Of a stretch of DNA of 42,132 nt, positions 440 through 42,132 are shown piece by piece. A program made the position numbers and the translations under genes. This stretch comes from Escherichia phage megetsur, in the sequence record MN850608.1. One strand, 5' to 3'. The notes under the pieces were generated by a model, which saw nothing but the letters and a program-made list of their open reading frames with translations, searched no databases and was not told the DNA's origin. Within the stretch, counting starts at the first letter, position 1, and each line of letters begins with the position of its first letter.

Positions 440-634
440 ATGCAAGAGTTCGACGCAATCCTCGTTACCTACAGCAGCATCACAAAAGGGCGCTGCCTTG
501 AAGGTAAGATTTACAATGACCGTGGCAGCCGCTTCTGTAACGGCACGCCTGTCACAACCTCACCTGTCGTATCGTTCGAGGGTGACGTGGCGATAACTGA
601 GAGTGGTACACGCTACCTCATTTGCGAGGCGTAG
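440..634 (+). CDS. hypothetical early protein (64 aa)
   Basis: ATG at 440 preceded by GGAG at 429-432 (7-nt spacer). Confidence 0.45.
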   Translation: MQEFDAILVTYSSITKGRCLEGKIYNDRGSRFCNGTPVTTSPVVSFEGDVAITESGTRYLICEA

Positions 635-4639: not shown

Positions 4640-4675
4640 TCATCTACTCATGCCTGTTATTATTTAGCAGGCATT

Positions 4676-4696
4676 ATGAAGGTGTCTATATTGGCC
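4676..4696 (+). promoter_or_regulatory. copy A of a conserved ATGAArGTGTCTATA element; candidate phage-RNAP promoter at the early/middle boundary
   Basis: ATGAAGGTGTCTATATTGG shares 15 of 16 positions with the element at 18857; sits directly after hairpin 4650-4676 and before the first middle gene. Confidence 0.35.
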
Positions 4697-4711: not shown

Positions 4712-4915
4712 ATGTTCAAAGTAATATTGTTGTTCCTGCTTCTGGTTATTATTTGGGGAGCATTGTGGGTAGGTCTTGCATCACTGGTGCTTATCCCTGC
4801 TGTCGGTGGGTCAGCCACTTCAACACTGGGCACGCTGCTCGGTATGCTGGTGGGCTGGGGTCTGATGCAGTTGAGCCTGAGTGTAGGCCAGAGCCGGAGG
4901 TGGATTAAATGGTGA
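4712..4915 (+). CDS. small hydrophobic membrane protein (67 aa), holin-like topology
   Basis: ATG 4712 with GAGGTG upstream; two hydrophobic segments and a basic C-terminus RRWIKW. Confidence 0.5.
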   Translation: MFKVILLFLLLVIIWGALWVGLASLVLIPAVGGSATSTLGTLLGMLVGWGLMQLSLSVGQSRRWIKW

Positions 4916-5349: not shown

Positions 5350-6056
5350 TGAAATCAGTGAGCAACGACGAGTGGCCGGAGCTGGCGAAGCGTCTGCCTG
5401 TAGGACAAAAGCGAAGGACGTTTCACAGTTGCTCGCGGTCATTCAACAAGACCAACTTCGAGTACGGTCGTGCACCGGATTACATCTGGTGCAAGTGCCA
5501 CCGCTGCGGGTACAGCCGCAAGCATGACTTAACCCATGCTGTGTACGTGCCGCCAGCGGAGGTGCAAGTGAAGGTGCCAACGGATGTGGTGCCTATCACT
5601 GAGGTGATTGCCAAGCAGCCGCGCTTGCTGCTGCCAGTGCTGGAGCGGGAGAACCTGATGCCGCACCTGTCTATCCTGACTGCAAGCCCAACGTATGGCA
5701 GGCTGTATCTGCCGGACGACACGGGCAGCTACTGTGGTCTGGACTACACGGGCAGGCAGTTCATCCCGTGGCGCTCGCCGCACAAGCACAGCTTGGCAAT
5801 GAAGGTCAGCCCTCGCGGTAATGCTGAGACCAACTGCCTCTGGATTTATGGTGAGGTGGACGAGTATCTCCAGCAGGTACGCGACGGCGGCAACTGCGCG
5901 TTCGTTCCCAACGTGGACGACTCAACGTTGCAGGCGCTGGTCAGTGTGACGCTGGCGTATGGATACAACCTCGTGGTTATCTGCCACCACCCAAGTGCTC
6001 AGCGCATACGCCGGGAGCTGCGTGTCGTTGGGCGTGTGCAAATCGTAGGAGAGTGA
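5346..6056 (+). CDS. putative DNA primase-like zinc-binding protein
   Basis: Cys/His cluster (HSCSRSF...CKCHRCG) and position immediately upstream of the helicase, as in phiKMV-like genomes; no TOPRIM motif verified. Confidence 0.35.
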   Translation: MMKSVSNDEWPELAKRLPVGQKRRTFHSCSRSFNKTNFEYGRAPDYIWCKCHRCGYSRKHDLTHAVYVPPAEVQVKVPTDVVPITEVIAKQPRLLLPVLERENLMPHLSILTASPTYGRLYLPDDTGSYCGLDYTGRQFIPWRSPHKHSLAMKVSPRGNAETNCLWIYGEVDEYLQQVRDGGNCAFVPNVDDSTLQALVSVTLAYGYNLVVICHHPSAQRIRRELRVVGRVQIVGE

Positions 6057-6057
6057 T

Positions 6058-7323
6058 GTGCTTGACAAGCTGTTGTTAACGGTGATGCGCGAGCGCGGGA
6101 AGTATAACTCCCTGCGACACGCCATCCCGGAAGATACCATGAGCCAGACCACGGGCTATATGCTGCGTGCTTACGGCTCATACTTTGACGCGTTCCCGGA
6201 CAGTGACTTCATTGACATTGAGACACTGGGTACGCACGTTCGTTTAAAGACAGGCAGCACGCCTGAACAGATGGCGGCCTTTGATTCCCTGTGTGCTCAG
6301 CTCAAAGAGTATCAGCCCACGAAGGAACAGAAGGAAGGCATCCTTGACCAGCTCGTAGAGTTGGACACCGCTGGCCGTGCGAACCTGCTGATGCAGAGGT
6401 ACGACAATGGTGAAGAACTGGATATTATCTATGAGCTTGGCCGTCTGGCTGAGGGCGCACGCCGCAGTCGGGGCCAATCATCAGTTACCGATTACGTCGA
6501 TGACGATGTGGTTGACATTATTAATCGCACTGATGATGACCAAGGTTTTAAGTTCGGTCTCATGTGTCTGCAAGATAGCGTACGCGTACTGCTTCCCGGC
6601 GACTCCGTTGCAATCGCTGCCCGACCTGACAGTGGGAAGACCAGCTTCATCGCGTTTAACCTTACGCGAATGGCGGCGACAGCGGCGAAGCTGTATCCGG
6701 GCAGACCAATCCTGTGGTTCAACAACGAAGGGCAGGGCATCAACATCATCCCGCGCATCTATCAGGCGGCGCTCAACTGTACGCTCCCGGAACTGAAAGA
6801 GCTGGGTGAGGACAGGAGCAAGCTGCACGCTGCGTATGCCAAGGCACTGGGTGCGCCAGCCAATGTGATTCGTGTGAAGGATATGCACGGCGCGACGCTG
6901 GCAAAAGCTGAGCAGGTTATCGAAGCGATGAACCCGTGCATCGTGGTGTGGGATATGCTTGCCAACTTCAAGCTGTCTGTGTCTGACCCGTCGAGCAACA
7001 AGGCGAGTCAGGTTGAGCAGCTATGGCAGGAGGTACGTGAGCTGGCAGTGCGACACAACTTCGTGTCACTGGCTACGGTTCAGGTATCAGCCGATGGTGC
7101 CGACGATATGTTCCCGGCGCTTGACGCATTGAAGGATTCCAAGACTGGTATCCAAGGGGCGACTGATGTTATCGTGATGCTCGGCAGCGTGGATGACCCA
7201 TCGCTGGCGGCGCGGCGCGGTGTCAGTACGCCGAAGAACAAACGCCAGATTGCTGGGCGTCCAAGCAACGTGCGGTCACAGGTACACTTCTTTGCTGACC
7301 GCTGCCAATATGAGGATATGTAA
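6058..7323 (+). CDS. replicative DNA helicase (DnaB / T7 gp4 helicase-domain family)
   Basis: Walker A AARPDSGKTSF; 421 aa; GTG start with AGGAGAG upstream. Confidence 0.8.
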   Translation: MLDKLLLTVMRERGKYNSLRHAIPEDTMSQTTGYMLRAYGSYFDAFPDSDFIDIETLGTHVRLKTGSTPEQMAAFDSLCAQLKEYQPTKEQKEGILDQLVELDTAGRANLLMQRYDNGEELDIIYELGRLAEGARRSRGQSSVTDYVDDDVVDIINRTDDDQGFKFGLMCLQDSVRVLLPGDSVAIAARPDSGKTSFIAFNLTRMAATAAKLYPGRPILWFNNEGQGINIIPRIYQAALNCTLPELKELGEDRSKLHAAYAKALGAPANVIRVKDMHGATLAKAEQVIEAMNPCIVVWDMLANFKLSVSDPSSNKASQVEQLWQEVRELAVRHNFVSLATVQVSADGADDMFPALDALKDSKTGIQGATDVIVMLGSVDDPSLAARRGVSTPKNKRQIAGRPSNVRSQVHFFADRCQYEDM

Positions 7324-16395: not shown

Positions 16396-18828
16396 GTGGA
16401 TTTACTTGCAGAGCAGATTCGACTTGAAGAAGAAGCGCGAGCCAGACACCGCGAGGGCTGGCTGGATAATATCAAAGAGGCGATGGCCAGTGGCCGCGCC
16501 GGGTCGGTGCCGTTGCTCCAGCGTATGATGGTTGAGGCTTATCCTCTGGTCGAAGCTGCGATGCAAGAAACCCTGAGCGAAACGACCCGTGGATATGGTG
16601 CGCAGTACCGGACGTACATGCGTGAGATTGGCACCAAAGCGTGTGCCTCTCTCGCACTGAGCATGGCGGTGTCCGGTGCTGCGTCGGAGCAGGCGGTACT
16701 GAGTCTGCTCAAGAGCATGGGCAAGGCACTGATGGCTGAGGTGGTGTATCTCCGGGCGAAGCAGACCGGGCCACAGCAGGCGGCGTACATGGAGCGCGTT
16801 AAGCAGGACGTGAAGAAGTCTCGCTCGAAGTCAGCGAACCACGTCTACAACAAAGCGCGTGCGTCGGCGGCGAACGTTGGGGTAGAGATTGATGTGCTGC
16901 CGCAGCGTGCGCTGATTACCATTGGCAAGCTGATGATGAAGTGCGTCGAGCCAACTGGTCTGGTGTCCACGATTCGCGTCGGCGGCAACCAGCGCCAGCG
17001 CGGTACGGCACACTTCGCACTGCACGAAGATGTGCTGGCTACGATGAACGACTGGCTGGACATGCCGCGTGCTGATGGCATGTGCTGCCCACCGCTGATT
17101 ATCCCACCGAAGCAGATTGCCCCGAACGGTCGCAGCGGTATGTGGCATTCCGATGGGCAGGCAGCGATGTACCGGGTCATGAGTCGCATGAACCACAAAG
17201 GGTATCGTGCATTGAACGTTGACCCGACCCCCGTTATAGAGCCGTGTATGATGCTCAGCAGCGTTCCGTACCGAGTTAACCCAATGGTACTGGAGTTCCT
17301 GCGAACGAACCGTACAGGCGTTATGGGGCTGCCTGTGCCACCCCGTGAGCCTACACTTCCGTTCACCATCCCCGCTGGTGTGAGCTTTGCACAGTACATC
17401 AGCAAGTTCCCACCAGAGATGCAGCAGCAGATGGATGCCGAAGCTCACGAGTACAAGGTGAAGACTCGCTTGTATTACAATGAGTTGCGTAAGTTCACGT
17501 CGCAGATGCTGGCGTTGAATGGTGCAGTCAAAGAGGCAGACAGGTATGCGCAGTACGATAGGATTTATCTCCCGACTTACGCCGATACGCGGGGCCGAAT
17601 TTATTATTCTTCGACCCTTAACCCTCAGTCTATCGACGCGGTGCGAGCGCTGCTTGAGCTTGCGGAACCAGTGGCTCTCGGAACTGAGGGGCTGTTCTGG
17701 CTCAAGGTTCATGTTGCGAATTGTTTCGGATATGACGCAACAGACTTCGACGACCGGGCGGCGTGGACGGACAAGACACTCCCCCGACTACGTGAGGCGT
17801 GCCGTCTTCCAGAGGCATTTGATTCGTTCTGGTCAGAAGCCGATAGCCCTATCAGCGCGTGGGCTGCCTCTGTTGAACTCATTCGCGCTATCGACTCAGG
17901 AAGTCCTGAGACTTATCCCTGCCGAGTGGTTACGCAATGGGACGCTACCTGTTCAGGATTACAGCACCTCAGTGCGATGCTACGAGATGAAGTTGGCGGT
18001 GCTGCTGTCAATCTTATCAATAGCGTGGGAAGAAAAGCAGACATATATCTCAAGACGGCAGCAGCGGCGATGCAGGCTCTTGAAGATAGTGAGGCGCAGT
18101 CACCGACGCAGATGGGTACGTGGCTTGTTTCAATCGGCATTGTCCGGGCGATGGCTAAGAAGCCAGTGATGACCTACGTGTACGGGGCAACCCGGCACGG
18201 TATGGTGGACTACTACTGCCTGTATCTGCGAGAGAACCGGGTCAAGCTGCCGGACGGCAAGAGCCTGCTGGAGTGTGCGCAGTTCATCGCAGAGTTCATG
18301 TGGAATGCAATCCCTCGCGTTGTGCCGAAGGCGGCAGAGCTGATGGCATGGTTGCAGGCTATCGCGGTTGAGGCGGCAGCCAACGGCGAGTACGTGGAAA
18401 TCATTGCACCATCAGGGTTGCGGGTGGTTAACCTGTATCAAGCCAGCAAGGAGACGATGCTCAACAACATCAACCTCATGGGTATCCACAGCATTAAGCT
18501 GCGCGAGTATCTGGACAAGCCGGACGGTAGGAAGTGTGCCGCTGCGATTGCTCCGAATTTCGTACACGCCATGGATGCCAGCCACATGATGAAGGTGTTG
18601 TGGGAGATGTGGAATAACGGGGTGTACATGGTGTCCATCCACGACTCGTTCGGGGTGGCGGCTGCACATGCCGGGTTACTCCACAAGGTCATTCGTGAAA
18701 AGTTCGTACAGATGTATGAGCAACATGACCCAATTCAACAACTTGCTGTACGATACAATGCTGTTGCACCTGAACGGGGCAATCTGGATATCCAGCTTGT
18801 GAAACAATCAAGCAAGTTTTTCTGCTGA
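16396..18828 (+). CDS. single-subunit DNA-dependent RNA polymerase (T7-type)
   Basis: DATCSGLQHLSAMLRDEVGGAAVNL and HDSFGV match T7 RNAP catalytic motifs; GTG start with AAGGAG upstream. Confidence 0.95.
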   Translation: MDLLAEQIRLEEEARARHREGWLDNIKEAMASGRAGSVPLLQRMMVEAYPLVEAAMQETLSETTRGYGAQYRTYMREIGTKACASLALSMAVSGAASEQAVLSLLKSMGKALMAEVVYLRAKQTGPQQAAYMERVKQDVKKSRSKSANHVYNKARASAANVGVEIDVLPQRALITIGKLMMKCVEPTGLVSTIRVGGNQRQRGTAHFALHEDVLATMNDWLDMPRADGMCCPPLIIPPKQIAPNGRSGMWHSDGQAAMYRVMSRMNHKGYRALNVDPTPVIEPCMMLSSVPYRVNPMVLEFLRTNRTGVMGLPVPPREPTLPFTIPAGVSFAQYISKFPPEMQQQMDAEAHEYKVKTRLYYNELRKFTSQMLALNGAVKEADRYAQYDRIYLPTYADTRGRIYYSSTLNPQSIDAVRALLELAEPVALGTEGLFWLKVHVANCFGYDATDFDDRAAWTDKTLPRLREACRLPEAFDSFWSEADSPISAWAASVELIRAIDSGSPETYPCRVVTQWDATCSGLQHLSAMLRDEVGGAAVNLINSVGRKADIYLKTAAAAMQALEDSEAQSPTQMGTWLVSIGIVRAMAKKPVMTYVYGATRHGMVDYYCLYLRENRVKLPDGKSLLECAQFIAEFMWNAIPRVVPKAAELMAWLQAIAVEAAANGEYVEIIAPSGLRVVNLYQASKETMLNNINLMGIHSIKLREYLDKPDGRKCAAAIAPNFVHAMDASHMMKVLWEMWNNGVYMVSIHDSFGVAAAHAGLLHKVIREKFVQMYEQHDPIQQLAVRYNAVAPERGNLDIQLVKQSSKFFC

Positions 18829-18854: not shown

Positions 18855-18877
18855 AAATGAAAGTGTCTATAGTGATA
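18855..18877 (+). promoter_or_regulatory. copy B of the conserved element ATGAAAGTGTCTATAGTGATA; candidate phage-RNAP promoter ahead of the late genes
   Basis: Exact 21-mer also present inverted at 40536-40556; contains CTATAG; followed by palindrome GTGATA-GA-TATCAC (18872-18885). Confidence 0.4.
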
Positions 18878-19124: not shown

Positions 19125-19125
19125 A

Positions 19126-19545
19126 ATGAAAGTGTCTACTATGGGAAATACATCACACACGACGATGCCACTCGACATTCGCCGTGCTGTGGCCGAAGGC
19201 ATTCAAGCTGAGCGGCCATGGTCAGACCTATCTCCCGATGTGATTGTTGACAGCATGTATGAGGCCACCGCCTCCGGTTGCGTTGACGTTTACATCACTG
19301 ACGATGACGGCAGCCTAATGGCTGTTGCTCACATCGGCAGGTTATTCGATATTCATGTGGGCGAGATGGTGGTCGTTATGGCCTCATACGTCTGGCCCCA
19401 GTACAGAAACCGTGGAGTGATGCGTGCCATCCTCCGTGTACTCAAAGACGTGGCCCGTTCAGCGGGTGTGCGTTGGTGCGGTTACTCCCATATGGTGCGG
19501 CCTTACGTTCAGGAGTACCGCTTCATTGATTTGGAGAAACCGTAA
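19126..19545 (+). CDS. hypothetical protein, possibly GNAT-like acetyltransferase
   Basis: Degenerate acetyl-CoA-binding-like motif WPQYRNRGVMRAIL; its first 15 nt repeat the promoter-like element. Confidence 0.35.
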   Translation: MKVSTMGNTSHTTMPLDIRRAVAEGIQAERPWSDLSPDVIVDSMYEATASGCVDVYITDDDGSLMAVAHIGRLFDIHVGEMVVVMASYVWPQYRNRGVMRAILRVLKDVARSAGVRWCGYSHMVRPYVQEYRFIDLEKP

Positions 19546-19807: not shown

Positions 19808-21373
19808 ATGACTCAAGACGCGCAGAACGTCAGCTATGAGTCTCTGTGGCAGAAGTACCGGGATAGCAACGTTGTCACGAAAGCGCGGGAGTACAGCCGC
19901 TACACACTGGCTAAGCTGGTGAGCGAGTACGACCGCAGTGACGTGGACGACATGAACCGCCAGCAGATTACTCGTGATTACCAGTCTGTCGGCGCTCTGC
20001 TCGTCAACAACCTGACCGCTCGGTTGGGTGAGTTCCTGTTCCCGGCTTCCGCACGATTCGTGAAGCTGAAATTAAACAAGGTGTCTGACCAACAGCGGCA
20101 GTCTATGTCGCAAGTGAATCAGGCGCTTATCACTATTGAGAAGGCCATCGTAGACAAAGCCAAAGAGAATGGCGGCTACGCTGACCTGCTCCAGTGCATT
20201 GCCCAACAAGCTGTGACCGGAAACGCCGCGCTGTACCGCGATATGGAAACTGGTTCGTACCGAGTGTACGGATTGGAATCCTTCGTGGTGCAGCGCGACG
20301 GTCGTGGCGTTGTGGTGGATGCTATTATCAAGGAGCGCATCCAGTGGGATTCTCTGCCGAAGGACTTTCAGAATGAGCTGAACTCCAAAGGCTTCCGCTG
20401 TGGTGGGAACAAACGCGTGTGGCTGTACACCCGCGTCCTTCGCGTTCAGAAGGACAGTGGCAATTACGGCTATGAAGTAACGCAGCAGATTGGCAACTAC
20501 CAAGGCTGCGTCTATACCCCCGGTAAAGATTACTACCCTGAAAAAGTCTGCCCATGGTTATTCCCAGTGTGGTCTTTGAAGTCTGGCGAGCATTACGGTC
20601 GCGGGATTGTCGAAGACCACGCTGGGGATTTCGCACGTCTGTCGCTCCTGTCTGAGCATTCTGCTCTGTACATGCAGGAAGCGCTGCGCGTGCTGTGGAT
20701 GCTCACTGGCTCTGGCGGCAACGTCGATGACATTGAGAGCGCAGAGACTGGGCAGGTCATTCCACTCCAGAACGGCACCACGTTGTCGGGGCTGGAGGTC
20801 GGGGATTACCAGAAAGTTCAACAGGCCCGTGACGAAATCAACCAGATTGTGCAGCGACTGGCGCAAGCCTTCATGTACACTGGTGAGTTCCGTGACTCCG
20901 AACGTACCACCGCCACCGAAGTGCAGCAGGTAGCAACCAGCGCCGAGCGTGGGCTGGGTGGGCCGTACTCAATGCAGGCTAAGACCCTCCAGATTCCTCT
21001 GGCGTATGTCCTGCTCGCGGAGATTGACGAGTCCACCGTACCAGATATCGTCGGCAACATCCTGTCGCTTCAAGTCGAAGCTGGCTTGGATGCCCTCGGT
21101 CGAAGCATTGAAGCTGAGACGCTTATCAGAGCGCTCTCCGACTCGCAGGCAGCAATGGTTGCTGTCCAGAATATTAATGGCGTTGCTAACACCATCGACC
21201 CTCAGAAAGTCCTTGAGGTTATCTTTGCCTCCAATGGTGTTGCGCTGGACGACTATCGTAAGTCGCCACAAGACTTGGCCCAAGAAGGTCAGGCCATCGA
21301 CAATGCAGCCGCTGCCGCCGCTGGCGTACAGCCGGGCGCAGTTGATGTAGCGCCTAACATCGCACAGATTTAA
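19808..21373 (+). CDS. head-tail connector (portal) protein
   Basis: 521 aa, first large gene of the structural module, followed by scaffold and capsid as in T7 gp8-gp9-gp10. Confidence 0.75.
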   Translation: MTQDAQNVSYESLWQKYRDSNVVTKAREYSRYTLAKLVSEYDRSDVDDMNRQQITRDYQSVGALLVNNLTARLGEFLFPASARFVKLKLNKVSDQQRQSMSQVNQALITIEKAIVDKAKENGGYADLLQCIAQQAVTGNAALYRDMETGSYRVYGLESFVVQRDGRGVVVDAIIKERIQWDSLPKDFQNELNSKGFRCGGNKRVWLYTRVLRVQKDSGNYGYEVTQQIGNYQGCVYTPGKDYYPEKVCPWLFPVWSLKSGEHYGRGIVEDHAGDFARLSLLSEHSALYMQEALRVLWMLTGSGGNVDDIESAETGQVIPLQNGTTLSGLEVGDYQKVQQARDEINQIVQRLAQAFMYTGEFRDSERTTATEVQQVATSAERGLGGPYSMQAKTLQIPLAYVLLAEIDESTVPDIVGNILSLQVEAGLDALGRSIEAETLIRALSDSQAAMVAVQNINGVANTIDPQKVLEVIFASNGVALDDYRKSPQDLAQEGQAIDNAAAAAAGVQPGAVDVAPNIAQI

Positions 21374-30119: not shown

Positions 30120-33100
30120 TTACACAAGAATCGCTCGACAAGTTCATGGCTCCCAAGCAGGGGGCCAATGCCCCTACGCTGGTGATTCCAGCTCCCGTAA
30201 AGACTGCTGACCTCAGCACTCCGCTGCAAGATGCCACTCGTCAGGGTGCTGTCGAGCAGTTCGATAAGATGCAGGAACTGGAAGCGACTCCGATGGCCAC
30301 GGCGTTGAGCGCTTCTGTGAAGAACTGGGATACCACTCAGCTCTTTGATGCCGCCTTCAACAAGCCTACCTTCCAAGCTGACCCGGACTTCAAGCCCAAC
30401 GAGGCTTTGCAGAACGTGCAGTTCCCGGTAGGTGAAGACGACAGAACCTTCCTGTTCAAATCCAAATCCATGGACGAGTTCAACTGGCGTACGCAGCAGC
30501 TCCAAGAGATGCGCGAACGTACCCAGTTGGCTCACACTGCCCCGGTGATGAACGCGGTTCTGCAATTCGCTGACCCGCTGTACCTCGCCACTGACCTGCT
30601 CTCGATGGGAGCAGGCACTGCCCTGAAATTAGGTCGCCTCGGAACCGCCGCTGTCGGTGCAGCTTCAACTGCTGCCACTATGACAGCGGTGGGTAACGAA
30701 GCACGCCCAGTGTCTCAGAACGAAATCATCTTTGCGGCTGCCCTGCACGGGGCGGCCACCACTGCATTCTATCGCCCGGCTCCGGTACAGCGCTCGCTGG
30801 CCGACCTGTCGCCAGAGGAATTTGCAGCAGAGATGCAGCGTCGTAATGGCATTGACCCGAACAACCCACCGCAGTTCGACCCGAACAATGCTATGTCGCC
30901 AATGGCCATGTCCTTGGGCTTTGGTGGTCGTGGCGCTACTGTGGTTGACGAGGTGCCGGAATCAATCCGGGCCACTGCGCAGCGCGGTCTCGACCTCGCT
31001 CGTCGCGGTGAGCAGACCAACCCTAAGCGTCCGTTCCTTGAATGGTCTCTGTTCAAGTCATTCAGTCAGCACTCCGATGAAGCCAGTGCGCTCGCCGGAC
31101 GACTGCTGGACGACCCACTGAACCCGAACATGACTTCCGCTGCATCAATCCAGCGTGAGACTCAGGCTCGGTTTGGCGTGCTGCTGAACCAGTACGAGGA
31201 CACTCTGCGTAATGCACTGAACACTGACGGCTGGACTAACATCCGTCGCTTCCGTGACCCCGTGGGCTATCGCCGGGCGCAGCAGGAGTTCGAAGCTGCT
31301 GTCCGTTTCGAGCTGGACAAGCGCATGATTGACAAAGAGTTCCGTGGTGCCAACGCTAACGTGGCCGCTGCCGCCGACCGACTGGGGGAATACTCCCGCG
31401 CCGTGGGCCGCGAGCTGGAAGCGAAGGGTATGGTGGAACCGGGCTTCGTAGACAAGAACCCGTACTACTACCCGCGCCGGATGAACGTGACCAAGATTGA
31501 GCAGGCTGAGCAGTTGCTCGGCAAGAAGCCATTCATGAAGCAGATGACGACCGCTGTGCAGCGCGGTATCGGTACTGACCGTCCGACTGCCAACGTCATT
31601 GCCCATGCCATGGTTGAGCGTGCTCGTCGTAAGGGCTACGGCATCGACAACTCCGGTATGATTATCAACAAGGAAGGTCGAGATGAATTGCTCGAAATCA
31701 TTGAGAACGCGAAAGGTCTCGACGAGGCTGCCAAGGCCCGTGCTTCCGCACTCCTTCGTGAGTCTGGCTCGGACGCTGGCCGACCGTCGATGCTCAAGAG
31801 CCGTATCAACATCGACATGATGCACCAGCTCGGCCCTAACTTGCAGGTGCGTGACCTGTTCGACGACAGCATCACCAGTATGATGGACAGCTATAACCGC
31901 CGCATTACCGGGCGACTGGCTCTGCATGAGGCTGGACTGGGTACTGACGCTGAACGCGCCGCCGCTCGCGAGGCTCTGGCCAAATCCATCCCGGATAGCA
32001 CGGCACGCCGTAAGGCTCTCGACCAATACGACAACATCATGGCTTACTACCAAGGTGCTCCTGTTGGTGAGGAAATGCCGGAGTTCATGCGCCAGCTTTC
32101 AGCACTGACTCAGGCGACTGGTCTGGCTGCATCTGGCCTGTGGCAGTTGGTAGAATACGGCACGATGATGCAACGTTTCGGGGCAGTCAATACGTTTCGC
32201 GCCATGATGCGTACAATTCCCGAAGCACGCGCACTATTTAAGCAAATGAGGGTGTCTACTAAGGAAGGTCGTCAATTGGCTCTGGATGCCGAGGAAGCGC
32301 TGACTGCGGCTGTAGCGAGTGATATTCGTATGCGCCCAATCATGCAGCACTATGACGACATGTTCTCTGCGGATAAGTCTCCGTGGGTCATGCGTATGGA
32401 ACACCTGCGCGATGCCACGATGTTCATCAACATGCAGAAGTACATCCACTTCCACCAGACTCGAACCAATGCTGCGCTCGTGATGCAGACGCTGCGTAAG
32501 GCAGCCGAAGGTGATGCCAAGGCTATTGCAGCCATGAAAACCTACGGTGCCAATGACGCGCTGCTGGCTGACATTCGCAAGCAGGTTGGTACTCATGGCA
32601 CCAAGCCTGATGCTTGGGATGAAGGGGTGTTCAATCGCTCTCGCATTGTCATGATGAATGCCATGGATGACGCTATTGTTCGCGCTCGCGTAGGTGAGCT
32701 GCCTGCATTTGCTGAGTTCAGTACGCTGGGTAAGTTCCTGTTTACGTTCCGTCGATTCGTCGCGGCAACGCACAACAAGACTCTGGTTGGTACTTGGAAT
32801 CGTGAGGGTGCCCGTGGGCTGGCTACGCTGATGGCGTACCAGTATCCGCTGGCGATGATGGCCACTGCTGCCAATAACGTGATTTCCGGTAAGGCATTCT
32901 CTGACCCGGATACCATGGCTCCGAACAAACTGGCTGGTCAGGCACTGAACTATCTCGGTGCTATCGGCTTTGCCTCTGAGTTCACTGGAGTTCTGACCGG
33001 GCAGCAGCGCAGCTTTGGTGCGCCGGGTCTGTTGTTCCTCGACCGCCTGTACGGTGTTGCTGGTGCCACCTCTGCTACGGCAGGTAGTCTGGCCACTGGT

Positions 33101-33220: not shown

Positions 33221-35592
33221 TGGCGAACAGCTATAATGCTTACGTGGCGAACGGTTCACAGACCGCATTCCTCGTCACGTTCGAGCAGCGTGTGTTCACT
33301 GAGATTCAGGTGTACCTCAACTCCGAACTCCAAACGGAAGGGTACACCTACAACTCTGTGACCAAACAGATTATCTTTGACACCGCCCCGCTCGCCGGGG
33401 TGATTGTCAGACTCCAACGCTACACCACTGAGGTTCTGCTGAACAAGTTCGGCCAAGATGCTGCCTTCACCGGGCAGAACCTTGACGAGAACTTTGAGCA
33501 GATTCTGTTCAAGGCTGAGGAAACTCAGGAAGCATGGCTCGCGCCACTTGACCGCGCCGTCCGTGTTCCGAACTCCGAGGTCTCTATCAACGCACTACCG
33601 AACGTCGCTGGCCGCCGCAACAAGGCACTGGGCTTTGACAGCAATGGCCAGCCGTTCATGATTCCTCTGGTTGATATCCCGGACTCCGCTCTGGCGATTG
33701 CTCTGGCAATGGCTGACGGCGGTAAGTGGATTGGTACTCTCGGCGGCGGCACGTTCCTCGACCGACAGGATACCGTCTGCCTGTCCGAGTTCACCAACAA
33801 CACGGGGTATGCCTCTGTCGCCGCTGCGGTACAGGCTTGCTTCGACTATGCGAAAGCCAACGGCAAGGTCGTTGACGCTCGCGGCTGGGAAGGTACGGTG
33901 GATTCCACTGTGCTGATGGACGGTATTGAGGTCGTCGGCGGTACGTGGCACGGCAAGGCTGACATTCGCCTGCTGAACTCCACCTTCCGCAACTTCGTGG
34001 CCTCTACTGTCCGTGTAGCCTACTGGGGCGGCGAGGTGCGTATTGCTGACTATGAGTTCACCAGCGCACCGAGCAACTCCAAGGTTACGTCTATCCTGTT
34101 CCAAGGCAACATCGCCGGGGGCAGCTACGTCATTGAGAACGGTATCCACCGCAATGGCAAGTTCGGTATTCTCCAACAGGGTACTGGCGAGGCTATCACC
34201 AACGGCGTTATCCGTGGCATCACCATGATGGATATGCAGGGTGATGGTATCGAGATGAACGTAATCAACAAGCACTATGATGGTGGCCTGCTGATTGAGA
34301 ACATCTTCCTTGAGAACATCGACGGCACCAACGCGCCTATTCCACTGTCCAACTGGGGCATTGGTATCGGTATCGCTGGTCAAGGCCCGTTCGGTTGGGA
34401 TGCTGCTGAGACGCAGTATGCGAAGAACGTCACTGTCCGTAACGTCCATGCTCCGCGTGGCGTGCGTCAGGTCGTCCACTTCGAGGTTACGCGTGACAGC
34501 ACCTGTGAGAACGTAGTGGCTAACCCTGACCTGTCCGTCTCCATTGGCACTGGCCTGACTGCCGCTGGTGTAATCACGTACGGCTGCAAGCGCATGACCA
34601 TTGACGGTGTAGTCGGTGAGCCTATGAACACCGGAGCAACCTCTCCGAACGATATTCGTATCGTGATGCTGGAGTGGGGTGCGAACCAAGCAGGCGCTGG
34701 CGGTACGCCGGGTGCGGCTTGTCCATCGTTCGACATGACCGTGCGTAATGTGCAGACCCGTACCGGGCGCTTCTATGCTGGTGTCGGCTCCGACGATGAC
34801 AACACCAACACATATCACCTTGAAAACATTCACTGTTACAAGATGACGCTGTTTGGTGTGGCAACTCTGCTGAACATGACCAACGTGACTGGTGTGGTGT
34901 TTGACGCTGTAGGCGATGATTCCAGCGGCGGTACGTCCTCCAACGGTCTGTACCCGCGTAAGAAGACTGTTCTCAACATGGTGAACGTGAACTTCTACGG
35001 GCCGGGCATGACCGAGGGTGCGCTGTACAGTAAGGCTCGCTACTCGGATATCAGCACGCTGAACTCCAACGTGCGTGCTATCCCGTACACCAACATCCAA
35101 GGTAACGTGGGTGTCATCCTGTCTCCGGTCAACCGCATGTACACGCTGCCGAACAACCTCGCTACCCTTGACGGTAATGAGTTCCCTACCGGGAAAGAGT
35201 TCTGCGAAGGTACTGTGCTGTTCAAGACCGATGGCTCAGGTGGCAATTTCATCGTGACCCGGTTCGGTGCGTATATCCCGGATGACGGCAACAACTTCAA
35301 GGTGCGTGCTGCTGCCGCTGGCCAGACGTATCTGGAGCAGAACCTGACTCCGGCTGGTACTCAGGCGTCCACCTCGTGGCTGTACCATAAGCCAATCTCT
35401 GCTGGTACTCGACTCAACATTCCGGGTGCCGGGCCGAGCGGCGGTACGCTCACTGTGACGGTGGTGCGTGCCCCGTATCAGGTGGACAACAACATCGGAA
35501 ACCCGGTACGCATCGACATTACACCACCCCTTGTGACGGCAATCCCTGCGGGAACGCAGCTCGCCGCTACCTACCCGGTGGCTTACATCTAA
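33220..35592 (+). CDS. tail fibre / tailspike with T7 gp17-like N-terminal anchor and beta-helix (depolymerase-like) body
   Basis: N-terminal ~120 aa resemble the T7 gp17 adaptor region; the rest is Gly/Asn/Thr/Val-rich with repeats typical of a right-handed beta-helix. Confidence 0.75.
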   Translation: MANSYNAYVANGSQTAFLVTFEQRVFTEIQVYLNSELQTEGYTYNSVTKQIIFDTAPLAGVIVRLQRYTTEVLLNKFGQDAAFTGQNLDENFEQILFKAEETQEAWLAPLDRAVRVPNSEVSINALPNVAGRRNKALGFDSNGQPFMIPLVDIPDSALAIALAMADGGKWIGTLGGGTFLDRQDTVCLSEFTNNTGYASVAAAVQACFDYAKANGKVVDARGWEGTVDSTVLMDGIEVVGGTWHGKADIRLLNSTFRNFVASTVRVAYWGGEVRIADYEFTSAPSNSKVTSILFQGNIAGGSYVIENGIHRNGKFGILQQGTGEAITNGVIRGITMMDMQGDGIEMNVINKHYDGGLLIENIFLENIDGTNAPIPLSNWGIGIGIAGQGPFGWDAAETQYAKNVTVRNVHAPRGVRQVVHFEVTRDSTCENVVANPDLSVSIGTGLTAAGVITYGCKRMTIDGVVGEPMNTGATSPNDIRIVMLEWGANQAGAGGTPGAACPSFDMTVRNVQTRTGRFYAGVGSDDDNTNTYHLENIHCYKMTLFGVATLLNMTNVTGVVFDAVGDDSSGGTSSNGLYPRKKTVLNMVNVNFYGPGMTEGALYSKARYSDISTLNSNVRAIPYTNIQGNVGVILSPVNRMYTLPNNLATLDGNEFPTGKEFCEGTVLFKTDGSGGNFIVTRFGAYIPDDGNNFKVRAAAAGQTYLEQNLTPAGTQASTSWLYHKPISAGTRLNIPGAGPSGGTLTVTVVRAPYQVDNNIGNPVRIDITPPLVTAIPAGTQLAATYPVAYI

Positions 35593-39054: not shown

Positions 39055-39406
39055 CATCCACTCGCGTATGGGTGCAGTGGAGGCTCGTATGCAGACCGTA
39101 GAACTTCGACTTGACAAGCACGAGGTACAAATCGCCACTCTTGAAAAGGGCGATGCTGCAATGATTTCCAAGCTGGCTGAGAACGACCTCCGCTGGCAGA
39201 CGGTTCAACAGCAGCTCCTTGTGGTTGAGCAAATTCAGGACATTCAAAAGACTATGAGCCATATCGGTAAGTTGTTTACGGCGGCGGCTCACGCTGTCAA
39301 ATGGTGTCTCTTAACTGCATCCCTGTGTAGCGGTATCTACTTAGCAATCAAGGCTGGTGACTTAAGCTCACTGCAAGCCTTCATCACTACACTACTGGGG
39401 ATGTAA
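39023..39406 (+). CDS. coiled-coil protein with C-terminal hydrophobic segment; possible holin or lysis accessory protein
   Basis: 127 aa; C-terminal AVKWCLLTASLCSGIYLAI; sits between the lipoprotein and the endolysin. Confidence 0.4.
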   Translation: MTEAKKEPSPNIHSRMGAVEARMQTVELRLDKHEVQIATLEKGDAAMISKLAENDLRWQTVQQQLLVVEQIQDIQKTMSHIGKLFTAAAHAVKWCLLTASLCSGIYLAIKAGDLSSLQAFITTLLGM

Positions 39407-39942
39407 TGACTAACTTTGAAATCTGTATGCGGTTCACCGGGCTGGCAGAAGGTGGTTACACCAAGCTGCCCGGCGATACCGGAGGGGAAACGAATCATGG
39501 AATTAGCGACGCTCGTGATGGCAAACTGGATGGCAGAGCTTGTGGTGTCCCTACTGGGCTTGGCGGTACTATTTGCGTGCCTATCAAAGCCCTCACCAAA
39601 GCACAAGCCGAAGCAATCTATCGACGGGATTACTACGCCCCCATCCGAGGTGACGAGCTTCACCCTGCGATTGCATGTGCCGTGTTTGACTACGGTGTCA
39701 ACTCCGGTGTCTCCCGTGCGGCGAAAGCTCTACAGCGGGTATGCGGCGTTGCACAAGACGGGATTGTTGGCCCTGCTACCGTGGCAGCAGCCAAACGTCT
39801 GGAACCTCACTCCGCAGCAGCAGCCATCTGTGACCTTCGTATTGCGTTCCTAAAGGCTTCTACAGCCCCGACAGTGGTTCGCTATAGGGATGCCTTGGTT
39901 GCTCGTGCAAAACGCTGTAGCGCTTACTGTGCGACGCTGTAG
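39406..39942 (+). CDS. endolysin, glycoside hydrolase family 108-like catalytic domain with C-terminal peptidoglycan-binding domain
   Basis: LAEGGYTKLPGDTGGETNHGIS resembles the GH108 signature; C-terminal region resembles PG_binding_3; no N-terminal SAR/TM segment. Confidence 0.7.
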   Translation: MTNFEICMRFTGLAEGGYTKLPGDTGGETNHGISDARDGKLDGRACGVPTGLGGTICVPIKALTKAQAEAIYRRDYYAPIRGDELHPAIACAVFDYGVNSGVSRAAKALQRVCGVAQDGIVGPATVAAAKRLEPHSAAAAICDLRIAFLKASTAPTVVRYRDALVARAKRCSAYCATL

Positions 39943-40059
39943 GGGTATCCAAAAGCTGACGCAATGAACAGGCCGTGGGTGCAATACCCCGGCTTGAAAA
40001 TTGCACGTTTATGCTTGCCCCTCCCTCGACCCAAATGACCGCGCGTGCCCCCATAGCGT

Positions 40060-40530
40060 GTGCGCGGATTAGCCTCGCGACGTGCGCGATATTTGCTCGC
40101 GTGCGCTGCGCGGCGCGTCAAGAGGATTGCCTGCGTGCGGTATAGCTCGTGCGTGTCGCGTTTCATCGTCTGCCGTGTGGCGTGCTGTGCGCTGTCCTGC
40201 TGGCTGTGCTGTGCGGTGCTGTCCTATGGGGACGCTCTGCGCTGGCTGTGCGGTGCTGCGTGCTGCGCTCGGTCGGGCGGGTATCTGTCTCTTTTGCTCG
40301 CAAGCTCTGCGCCGTGGTGGTGCTGTGTGGTGGCGGTGGTGCTGCCGTGGTGCTGTCCTGTCTGCTGGCCTACTGTCTGCGCCGCCAGCTCTGCGCGTCA
40401 TGCTCTGCTACTGTGTCACCTGTCCTACTGCGTTCACTGGCTGCCGCCTGTCATCCTGTCGGATTCCATCCGTTGCCGTTCCGCGCTCGCTTGTTTCGGC
40501 TGCGCCGCGCTCGCTCTGCGTATCTAGCGA
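40060..40530 (+). repeat. strand-skewed G/T-rich low-complexity tract (A-poor on + strand)
   Basis: Reiterated GCTGTG, GTGGTG, CTGCGC units; three + frames and one - frame stay open, which is composition-driven and not coding. Confidence 0.7.
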
Positions 40531-40535
40531 TACTA

Positions 40536-40556
40536 TATCACTATAGACACTTTCAT
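40536..40556 (-). promoter_or_regulatory. copy D (inverted) of the 21-bp element ATGAAAGTGTCTATAGTGATA
   Basis: Exact reverse complement of 18857-18877; flank similarity extends to about 50 bp; the + strand here reads TCACTATAG, identical to T7 promoter positions -8 to +1. Confidence 0.4.
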
Positions 40557-40562
40557 AATTAT

Positions 40563-40583
40563 CTAATGATTACAGTAACTTAT
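40563..40583 (+). repeat. 21-bp direct repeat, copy 1 (CTAATGATTACAGTAACTTAT)
   Basis: Exact second copy at 40642-40662; contains palindromic core TTACAGTAA. Confidence 0.85.
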
Positions 40584-40641
40584 GACCTATCTGATAACGG
40601 TATTCTATCCAGTGTTGTGATTATCCAATCAAACTTTAATC

Positions 40642-40662
40642 CTAATGATTACAGTAACTTAT
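40642..40662 (+). repeat. 21-bp direct repeat, copy 2
   Basis: Identical to 40563-40583, 79 bp downstream. Confidence 0.85.
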
Positions 40663-40683
40663 CACTTTTCTTGAAAATAATAC

Positions 40684-40713
40684 TTGCAAACTGTTTTGGT
40701 TATGTGCTGTAAT
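40684..40713 (+). promoter_or_regulatory. sigma70-type promoter P0 (TTGCAA-N18-TGcTGTAAT)
   Basis: -35 TTGCAA at 40684-40689, extended -10 TGCTGTAAT at 40705-40713. Confidence 0.5.
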
Positions 40714-40785
40714 TCATCACGTCTAAAGGCACTAGCCCAGTAGACACAGACAGACGGTAGCATCGCTCTTTAACAATCTGGTGTG

Positions 40786-40814
40786 TTGACAAGGCAAGCT
40801 CACTATGCTGTAAT
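40786..40814 (+). promoter_or_regulatory. sigma70-type early promoter P1 (TTGACA-N17-TGcTGTAAT)
   Basis: Consensus -35 TTGACA, 17-nt spacer, extended -10 TGCTGTAAT. Confidence 0.6.
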
Positions 40815-40922
40815 GCTTCCAGTCAGCCAGACAAGCCAAATAGTGATGGATAAACACGTTAACACCCGCGTAGGCTAACTGGTACGGTTTAATTAACTCA
40901 GAACGGGCGCTGATTAAATCGG

Positions 40923-40951
40923 TTGACAGGATGAAACGAGTATGCTGTAAT
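40923..40951 (+). promoter_or_regulatory. sigma70-type early promoter P2 (TTGACA-N17-TGcTGTAAT)
   Basis: Same architecture as P1. Confidence 0.6.
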
Positions 40952-41002
40952 ACACACCAGATTGACAGGGCAGCAAGCCAGTCAGTCAGAAGTAAAAAGT
41001 AG

Positions 41003-41031
41003 TTGACACGCTGAATACGATGTGATGTAAT
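41003..41031 (+). promoter_or_regulatory. sigma70-type early promoter P3 (TTGACA-N17-TGaTGTAAT)
   Basis: Same architecture as P1 and P2. Confidence 0.6.
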
Positions 41032-41039
41032 CAGCACCG

Positions 41040-41463
41040 AGTTGAAAGGTTGCAAAACAACCTGCTCTGAGTGAACGTAAACAGGCCACGTAGTGTCTCG
41101 GCCTCATGGGTATCCGGCGCAGCTAGGAACTGGTGAGGGCACCGCCGAAAGGCAATAGGGGTAGCGCCCGGTGCGATGGGAACGGAGAAGCGCGATAGAC
41201 GCAGCGCAGTATCAGCACAATCCCGAACGTCTTATAAGGCGCGGAGTGAAGCGGGTAGGTAGGCAAGCTGGAAACGGTGAGCCGGACTGCTGGAGGACTC
41301 CTGAGAGTGGATGCAGACAATATCCACGGCGCGAAATGGGCGGGGCGATTTTTCAGGGTAGTGAATCCGACAAGCCAATCAATGCCAACGAGTGCAGACT
41401 GTACGGCGCGTCACAATGGGTTCACTATCCACCTGAAAATAGCCAACAACTGGAGAAATAACT
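41040..41463 (+). other. long purine-rich non-coding leader between the early promoters and the first early gene
   Basis: About 420 nt with no RBS-preceded ORF; G/A-rich on the + strand; small hairpin GGTTG-CAAAA-CAACC at 41043-41057. Confidence 0.5.
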
Positions 41464-41853
41464 ATGTACCGTATCTATGCAAGCGCATATCGTCCGAATA
41501 ACGCTGAATGTGTTAATCTGGCGCTTCATTGCAAGGCACTGCGAACGGTGCAGGATATGTTCGGAGTGATTCCGGTCACGCTGACAGGCAAGTTCGACAA
41601 TCAGTATGAGTTGAGCATGGTATTTCCTGTCGATGGAATCTACGAAATCAGGAAGGCGGTATCGCTTTTCTGTAAGGTTCTTGAACAGGACTGCATCATG
41701 GTAGTGACCAAAGATGATGATGCAATCTTCATGGATTCACCGTATCCGGGCAAGCCTGCTGGCAAGCTGGTCAGCAAAACAGGCGAGCAGATGGAAGCCG
41801 GGCAGCATACCGCTTGGACTTATGACGGTGAACTGTTTTGGGTAGTGGAGTAA
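41464..41853 (+). CDS. hypothetical early protein (129 aa), first gene after the promoter cluster
   Basis: ATG 41464 with GGAG 9 nt upstream. Confidence 0.55.
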   Translation: MYRIYASAYRPNNAECVNLALHCKALRTVQDMFGVIPVTLTGKFDNQYELSMVFPVDGIYEIRKAVSLFCKVLEQDCIMVVTKDDDAIFMDSPYPGKPAGKLVSKTGEQMEAGQHTAWTYDGELFWVVE

Positions 41854-42000
41854 GGGGAATGACTATGTTCACTGCACTGTGTGTTATAGCGGCGGCCTGC
41901 TGGGTCATTGACCAGCGCCTGAGCCGTCGCCGTGGCTGATAGCCTATAGCGTCTTGCGAGGCGCTATGTGAAATCAACCAACCTGACAAGGGGTAACATC

Positions 42001-42132
42001 ATGACTACTGCAATCAAATACACCAGCTTCAAAGACGCTGCCGCTCTGGACAAGGCTATTGAGTCTACCGTCAAGAAGGCGCACTCACTCCGTAACGAGA
42101 TTCAGAACGTTGCGGTCGGTATCATCCTGCAC
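42001..42132 (+). CDS. hypothetical early protein, 3'-truncated at the window edge
   Basis: ATG 42001 with AAGGGG upstream; frame open to the end of the window. Confidence 0.4.
   Translation, partial: MTTAIKYTSFKDAAALDKAIESTVKKAHSLRNEIQNVAVGIILH

Follow-up and report, generated by a model that had tools for sequence, protein, structure and literature searches.

The window analysed here, meaning the whole stretch of 42,132 nucleotides, is the genome of Escherichia phage megetsur (GenBank:MN850608.1), and the subject of this analysis is a short promoter-like element at positions 40536–40556, close to the left genome end, which is an inverted copy of a sequence located elsewhere in the same DNA. 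Comparison with relatives identified the window as a complete, circularly permuted record of a Bonnellvirus, a phiKMV-type member of the Autographiviridae. In the regions tested, phage mellemsur was 95–99% identical to the window; more distant relatives were J8-65, the other Danish "-sur" coliphages, Kosakonia phage Kc261, and Pantoea phages ROV85 and LIMEzero. Judged by annotated relatives, all genes lie on the plus strand, and a single coding strand was also found in records deposited in the opposite orientation. The element lies in a 1.5-kb non-coding stretch extending from the endolysin gene to the first early gene, and the genes needed for orientation are as follows.

16396–18828, plus strand: RNA polymerase (RNAP) gene, coding for a single-subunit T7-type polymerase of 810 amino acids
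end at 39942, plus strand: endolysin gene
start at 41464, plus strand: first early gene (SAMase)

The plus strand at 40536–40556 reads TATCACTATAGACACTTTCAT, and the exact reverse complement was located at 18857–18877, as had been noticed in a first-pass annotation of this DNA. When searched with up to 3 mismatches, the 21-mer gave these two matches only, compared with 0.00 expected from 100 dinucleotide-preserving shuffles, and an independent repeat search returned the same pair (inverted, 21 nucleotides, 100% complementary). Searching with AATGAAAGTGTCTAT, again with up to 3 mismatches, gave 5 matches against 0.51 expected, and none of the shuffles reached 5. The promoter-like family therefore has five copies with the core AATGAAAGTGTCTA, including three shorter gene-sense copies of the core (at 4675, 19125 and 32245) that the first-pass annotation had overlooked. 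We designated the five copies PA to PD and PL.

4675–4694, plus strand: PA, reading TATGAAGGTGTCTATATTGG, upstream of the primase and helicase genes
18856–18877, plus strand: PB, the post-RNAP copy, reading AATGAAAGTGTCTATAGTGATA
19125–19144, plus strand: PC, reading AATGAAAGTGTCTACTATGG and overlapping the ATG of the open reading frame (ORF) 19126–19545
32245–32264, plus strand: PD, reading AATGAGGGTGTCTACTAAGG, within the last internal-virion-protein gene
40536–40557 (core match 40543–40557), minus strand: PL, the inverted left-end copy, reading TATGAAAGTGTCTATAGTGATA on the minus strand

PL is the sole copy of the five on the minus strand, and the earlier statement that it opposes all genes was thus borne out. 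Each of the four gene-sense copies precedes a gene module and faces the same way as its genes. PA and PB are intergenic: PA is immediately preceded by a hairpin (about 4650–4675) and followed 18 nucleotides later by an ATG at 4712 with the ribosome-binding site GAGGTGA, and PB is situated 28 nucleotides past the RNAP stop codon and 62 nucleotides ahead of the first late-region ATG (18939). PC, which overlaps the start codon of the second gene downstream of that for RNAP, and PD, about 950 nucleotides from the tail-fibre gene, precede structural and tail-fibre genes.

The comparison was extended to 12 genomes, namely the window, mellemsur, Ec1-ASingh, BHUENT7, an IMG/VR contig, glasur, ROV85, Kc261, J8-65, smaasur, Lidtsur and LIMEzero; a scan of viral contigs with the first early protein gained only one further genome. 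A homologous set of sites recurred across the 12 genomes, which belong to Bonnellvirus and Waewaevirus, and the left-end copy was inverted in every one of them (12/12). Positions 9–14 of the 20-mer were alike at all copies within a genome and differed among genomes, the block being distributed as follows.

TGTCTA: the window, mellemsur, Ec1-ASingh, BHUENT7 and the IMG/VR contig
TGACTA: glasur and ROV85
CTACTA: Kc261
TAACTG: J8-65, smaasur and Lidtsur
CAAGCA: LIMEzero

For this 6-nucleotide block, different sites in one genome had 0.21 mismatches on average, compared with 2.97 for the same site between genomes. The block changes were also tracked by the two copies in coding sequence, by PC despite its coding constraint, and in LIMEzero the concerted block was kept though the neighbouring intergenic DNA has diverged. 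This pattern speaks for a single protein that recognises all these sites and co-evolves with them. The RNAP residues aligned to the T7 specificity loop were identical within the promoter groups and different between them, a correlation which, being confounded by overall relatedness, is suggestive of a pairing of RNAP and promoter.

Two directions of reading had been considered in the first-pass annotation: in the gene-sense one, transcription from PL would run leftward and antisense, crossing the skewed tract in the direction of the lysis genes, whereas in the T7-like one (TCACTATAG) it would fire rightward at the left end like phiOL of T7, and the copy at 18857 would point into the RNAP gene. 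Comparison across the family supports the former. The half common to all five copies, together with the co-varying half, is ATGAAAG plus the block, whereas CACTATAG, which gives the T7-like appearance on the other strand, is present in the window group in PB and PL only and finds no match in PA, PC and PD, in the post-RNAP copies of J8-65, smaasur and Lidtsur, or in any LIMEzero copy; for these reasons we read the element in the ATGAAAG direction. On the opposite reading, the ACTTTCAT-proximal half, which alone is common and co-varying, would fall downstream of the start, that is, on the wrong side for a rightward phiOL-type promoter; moreover, four of the five copies would be antisense and the late genes would be left without a phage promoter. 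The sites annotated in LIMEzero are likewise in the sense direction. The gene-sense copies, at the positions that experimentally mapped promoters occupy in phiKMV-type phages, are in line with the same choice, so that of the two earlier proposals the leftward one was upheld and the phiOL-like one was not.

The consensus can be written roughly as (A/T)ATGAAAGTGTCTAnnnTG, read in the ATGAAAG direction, with a putative start near the last G. The G at position 19 of the 20-mer was kept in nearly all copies, which suggests that it is the start site; for PL this would be the minus-strand G at about 40539, and the predicted starts of the sense copies are at about 4693, 18874, 19143 and 32263. The element starts with AATG, as do the promoter TAATGTTACAGGAGTA of KP34 and the promoter AATGTATACCCCTATATACAC of Cronobacter phage Dev-CD-23823, and with the latter it has AATG-N7-CTATA in common in the same register.

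To place PL relative to the genome end, use was made of the J8-65 record (GenBank:KM247287), in which 259-bp terminal repeats are annotated (repeat_region 1–259 and 40723–40981), starting with TCGACCC at 73 nucleotides past the endolysin stop codon. By homology, the physical left end of the window would be at about 40026, within 10 nucleotides to either side; the termini of KP34 and LUZ19 begin with CCCTC, so that the end could be up to about 10 nucleotides further left. Two features follow from this placement.

40026–40274, no strand assigned: inferred direct terminal repeat, by homology to the J8-65 repeats, in single copy in the record
40275–40535, minus strand: predicted body of the leftward unit, from PL to the terminal repeat, with 6.9% A on the plus strand

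On this placement PL lies about 283 nucleotides rightward of the inferred edge of the repeat, the element is about 510–530 nucleotides inside the end, the predicted PL start is about 514 nucleotides from the left end, and 126 nucleotides separate PL from the first host-type promoter block. The first-pass annotation had taken the element as a mark of the genome terminus, origin or packaging region. Nearness to the terminus is supported by the homology to the J8-65 repeats, but the element is not at the end itself, and neither an origin nor a packaging role emerged. The GC content was 29% in 40550–40700, upstream of PL, and 56–69% downstream of it; a T7-like replication origin was rejected, as the AT-rich DNA is located upstream of PL and not downstream.

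The DNA between the end and PL is conspicuously poor in A on the plus strand, with 8.4% in the repeat and 6.9% from the repeat to PL, compared with 23% genome-wide. Corresponding values from terminus to left-end promoter were 6.9% and 10.4% in J8-65, 12% in LIMEzero, 7.0% and 6.2% in LUZ19, 13–18% in KP34 and 22% in Dev-CD-23823 (spans: window 40026–40535, J8-65 1–528, LIMEzero 41–636, LUZ19 1–731, KP34 1–474 and Dev-CD-23823 41187–41620). In these six phages, a leftward left-end promoter thus goes with 6–12% A and a rightward one with 13–22% A. Because the plus strand is depleted of A, the predicted leftward RNA would be poor in U. The predicted 514-nucleotide run-off RNA folded less well than shuffled controls (z = +2.21), and a structured non-coding RNA is therefore unlikely. 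A search of 39300–42132 against Rfam in E-value mode found nothing in the leftward unit and gave one sub-threshold chance match inside the first early gene. When minus-strand ORFs were checked against relatives, no conserved ORF was found in the leftward unit, an ORF of 110 amino acids being confined to the window. Separately, an arginine-rich ORF of 74 amino acids (39944–40166, minus strand) spans the inferred left end, so that only concatemers would carry it whole; Kc261 has a similar ORF and Lidtsur part of one, and the ORF is probably spurious. No leftward terminator-like site was found in 39300–40540; transcripts on concatemers could therefore go on antisense into the lysis genes.

The closest precedent is found in Pseudomonas phage LUZ19 (Phikmvvirus), in which ONT-cappable-seq revealed four phage-specific promoters with a common 20-bp motif (Putzeys et al. 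2024, PMC10914365). Two of these are located directly after the RNAP gene, one (P009) in the structural region, and the fourth (P001) within the early region but on the opposite strand, from which antisense transcripts cover the right-end genes; the P001-type arrangement is present in 15 other Phikmvvirus species, and the authors suggested that P001 may block run-on into the early genes on a circular or concatemeric genome (PMC10914365). The first-pass annotation had called an opposite-strand copy unusual, which in view of these phages was overstated. We located P001 at 751 on the minus strand, 279 nucleotides from the 472-bp repeat and about 160 nucleotides before the first annotated sigma-70 promoter; the left-end copy of J8-65 is 290 nucleotides from its repeat. 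Like PL, P001 carries the motif of the sense promoters, is the only copy opposing all genes, and is flanked by the left terminal repeat on one side and the host early promoters on the other, at nearly the same distance from the repeat (279 versus about 283 nucleotides). The two phages also have in common the pair of sense promoters directly after the RNAP gene, the one in the structural region, the A-depletion of the plus strand from the terminus to the left-end promoter, and the conservation of the arrangement throughout the genus. They differ in that the promoter sequences are unrelated (GgtTATGTCACacACAnnGG in LUZ19 and AATGAAAGTGTCTAnnnTG in the window), in that the window has an extra sense copy before the replication genes which LUZ19 lacks, and in that P001 was mapped by ONT-cappable-seq whereas PL is predicted only. 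LUZ19 belongs to the Pseudomonas Krylovirinae, whereas the PL group comprises the enterobacterial Bonnellvirus and Waewaevirus.

Within the PL group, the record of LIMEzero (GenBank:FR751545; Adriaenssens et al. 2011) labels two sense-direction sites as "putative phage specific promoter". That at 7294–7313, after an annotated terminator and before the primase gene, is the homologue of PA, and that at 20330–20349 is the homologue of PB; the sites of LIMEzero and of the window are members of one motif family, (T/A)A(T/A)(G/A)AAGGCAAGCACTAAGG. Three further LIMEzero copies, unannotated in the record, were found here: the inverted left-end copy at 656 (minus strand), one at 20740, and one at 33866 that is the counterpart of PD.

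Other relatives have their left-end promoter in the opposite direction. The strong promoters of KP34, T(A/G)ATGTTACAGGAGTA, have been validated in vitro (Lu et al. 2019, PMC6834552). Like the family in the window, they start with AATG and have copies after the RNAP gene (22197), in the structural region (33721) and at the left end; however, the left-end copy (475–490, plus strand) points rightward at 259 nucleotides from the repeat, the tract preceding it is less A-depleted, and the KP34 RNAP is only about 32% identical to that of the window. It was also noticed that KP34 has ACTTTCAT, the reverse complement of ATGAAAGT, at about 447–454, some 20 nucleotides upstream of the rightward promoter; this is the relative position of the PL core, and the match could be due to chance or be the remnant of an inverted copy. 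The promoter of Dev-CD-23823 has also been validated in vitro (PMC12272871); as in the window, copies follow the RNAP gene and precede the tail-fibre gene (34044) and one copy is inverted, whereas the left-end copy (position 19, plus strand) points rightward. Two Dev-CD-23823 copies after the RNAP gene, at 19321 (minus strand) and 19334 (plus strand), form a divergent back-to-back pair; as one member faces back into the RNAP gene, this gene may be under antisense control. T7 resembles the window in the order of terminal repeat, a skewed or repetitive stretch a few hundred bases long, phage promoter and host early promoters. Its phage left-end promoter phiOL (405) points rightward, unlike PL, and its leftward left-end promoter A0 (224), between the terminal repeat and phiOL, is an E. 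coli promoter used by the host RNAP; in addition, the T7 RNAP gene is early, whereas that of the window is at the end of the replication module.

Taken together, we consider it likely that the element is a promoter of the phage RNAP, the fifth and inverted copy of the family, which fires leftward and probably serves as an insulator in the way proposed for P001 of LUZ19. By analogy, PL is most likely the counterpart of P001 in Bonnellvirus and Waewaevirus, with a different promoter sequence. According to this scheme, PA would head the replication module, PB and PC the late module, and PD the tail-fibre end of the structural operon. PL would become active in mid to late infection, as soon as the phage RNAP has been made: transcripts starting at about 40539 would pass over the A-depleted template and then the terminal repeat, leaving unit-length DNA at the left end after about 514 nucleotides and reaching the lysis genes in antisense on concatemers. 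Late read-through at the concatemer junction would be opposed by these leftward polymerases, or by the antisense RNA that they make, so that the early genes stay silent late in infection. Since the RNA appears to be unstructured and non-coding, it is probably the act of transcription or antisense pairing that matters. Position, spacing and template composition recur with an unrelated recognition sequence, which argues that the arrangement has been selected and has a function. As hypotheses on this function we would rank, in order of preference, insulation, transcription of the repeat or junction for maturation, packaging or end replication, and antisense control of the lysis genes.

Several points weigh against this interpretation. 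Insulation is a published hypothesis for P001 and not a demonstrated mechanism, and the leftward design is not universal in phiKMV-type phages, as the left-end copies of KP34 and Dev-CD-23823 are rightward. On the plus strand, PL matches the left-end copy of Dev-CD-23823 at 15 of 21 positions, including CTATAGACAC. The motif is unlike that of LUZ19 and unlike the four promoter categories of PMC11880802, and the correlation with the specificity loop carries the confounding by relatedness mentioned above. The position of the repeat was taken from one annotated relative, J8-65, whose end-mapping method goes unstated. Neither a publication on Bonnellvirus promoters nor Bonnellvirus transcription data were found, and the papers on J8-65, the Danish coliphages and the Kosakonia phage are silent on promoters and termini.

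If the leftward phage promoter is accepted, a promoter consensus that can be tested becomes available for a genus with uncharacterised RNAP promoters, with possible use in annotation and as an orthogonal polymerase–promoter pair. The backward left-end promoter, first mapped in LUZ19, would not be peculiar to Pseudomonas phages, and phages of E. coli K-12 would offer a tractable system for finding the function of the arrangement.

What PL does at the genome end may be linked to a motif that directly adjoins the inferred repeat on its right side.

40275–40297, plus strand: boundary motif GGGCGGGTATCTGTCTCTTTTGC, flagged as terminator-like

This motif was conserved in most of the Bonnellvirus-group alignment, absent in smaasur and degenerate in LIMEzero. 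Within it, GGGCGGGTATCTGTCTCTTTT resembles the class II signal ATCTGTT of T7, the ATCTGT starting at 40283 being one base off. In T7, ATCTGTT starts at nucleotide 161; the T7 terminal repeat is 160 bp, which places the signal directly after the repeat. The class II signal has been linked to the concatemer junction, and any base change in it abolishes termination by T7 RNAP. By analogy, the boundary motif may be a pause or termination site for rightward read-through, but with one deviating base and a polymerase other than that of T7 the resemblance is no more than a lead. No motif of the ATCTGT type was found at the repeat boundaries of KP34 or LUZ19. As a separate observation, the end of the Dev-CD-23823 record carries GGCGGGCTATCTGTATC, which is similar to the boundary motif.

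These features allow an alternative in which PL is again a leftward promoter of the phage RNAP, but serves the terminal repeat and concatemer junction in DNA maturation, packaging or replication. Leftward polymerases would approach the junction from the early side and rightward late ones would halt at the ATCTGT next to the repeat, in parallel with T7, in which processing is linked to the passage and pausing of polymerase at the concatemer junction. The similar spacing of about 280 nucleotides between repeat and promoter in unrelated sequences (279 in LUZ19, about 283 in the window and 290 in J8-65) speaks for this, as do the retention of GGGCGGGTATCTGTCTCTTTT directly after the repeat, the unstructured and non-coding nature of the predicted RNA, and the confinement of an A-depleted template (6–12% A) reaching to the physical end to phages with a leftward promoter, a composition that would favour polymerases reaching the end. 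However, no experiment ties P001-type promoters to packaging or replication, the one-base deviation of ATCTGT from the T7 signal falls on a sequence that tolerates no change in T7, LUZ19 lacks the motif as does KP34, and a rightward left-end promoter suffices in KP34 and in Dev-CD-23823. On balance we regard this role as unlikely. Also on the doubtful side, though somewhat less so, is the broader proposal that the leftward promoter, the A-depleted template, the spacing of about 280 nucleotides and the ATCTGT make up one conserved end module, in which transcription across the repeat would aid junction processing, repeat duplication or end replication beyond any insulation. If true, such a module would be common to Pseudomonas Phikmvvirus and enterobacterial Bonnellvirus and Waewaevirus, and be replaced by the rightward design in KP34 and Dev-CD-23823.

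It is very improbable that the element is no promoter at all, being instead an orientation-independent site for a terminase, a replication initiator or a repressor-like factor, or a neutral relic of duplication. Its place near the terminus, adjoining an AT-rich spacer with repeats, would suit such a site, and short dyads, GTGATA-N2-TATCAC, flank the copy at 18857; a weaker similarity between PB and PL, seen by eye and extending for about 30 nucleotides further upstream, suggests duplication. However, the dyads are not kept in the J8-65 group or in LIMEzero, the motif heads four modules in the sense direction at sites that are promoters in relatives, and the concerted block change in every lineage argues for selection by a co-evolving protein and not for a relic. 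Least probable of all is that the plus strand is functional, as a T7-like or Dev-CD-like promoter (ending in TATCACTATAGACAC) firing rightward like phiOL: the resemblance of CACTATAG to a T7-type core, the plus-strand likeness to the Dev-CD-23823 left-end copy, the rightward promoters at the equivalent place in KP34, Dev-CD-23823 and T7, and the separate Dev-CD-23823 copy facing into its RNAP gene all favour it, but the family evidence on the direction of reading, given above, opposes it.

Between PL, which we continue to read as a leftward phage promoter, and the first early gene, two further features were noted.

40563–40671, plus strand: AT-rich spacer, with direct repeats of CTAATGATTACAGTAACTTAT at 40563–40592 and 40642–40671
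40683–40688 (CTTGCA) to 40708–40713 (TGTAAT), plus strand: first host-type early promoter, from conservation and the LIMEzero annotation

The second CTAATGATTACAGTAACTTAT repeat was kept in all relatives and showed no co-variation with the promoter block. With one gap allowed, these repeats resemble the KP34 strong promoter TAATGTTACAGGAGTA. The LIMEzero record labels the homologous block, 801–847, as a host promoter. A strict sigma-70 scan of 39300–41500 found no promoter, the TTGACA...TGTAAT blocks failing the rule of A at position 2, and it is solely by conservation and the LIMEzero annotation that we term these blocks host-type promoters. It was also noticed that position 1 of the glasur record (GenBank:MN850583) coincides with the first base of the element (TATCACTATAG...), which probably reflects where the assembly broke at the inverted repeat, not a true end of the DNA.

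A few observations elsewhere in the genome are recorded here. The early region contains a stem-loop, AGCCTATAGCGTCTTGCGAGGCGCTATGTGAA (41941–41972, plus strand), with all specified bases of a motif once proposed as a KP34-like promoter (PMC4411677). The KP34 RNAP gave no transcription from that motif (PMC6834552), and the KP34-type motif AGCCTATAGCG...GCGCTATGTGAA was for this reason rejected as a promoter; since the stem-loop is kept in different genera, it may have some other role, for instance in processing or stabilising RNA. Chi (GCTGGTGG) was found six times on the plus strand (4846, 24200, 25044, 35645, 37034 and 38480) and not on the minus strand, a marginal count compared with 2.6 expected, as 4 of 100 shuffles reached 6. 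Finally, the plus strand of the early region carries 45-nucleotide direct repeats (GGGCAATGCGGCAATCATGCCTTAACC...GAGG..ATG) at 1020–1064, 1428–1472, 2030–2074 and 5508–5552, which may be processing or translation signals.

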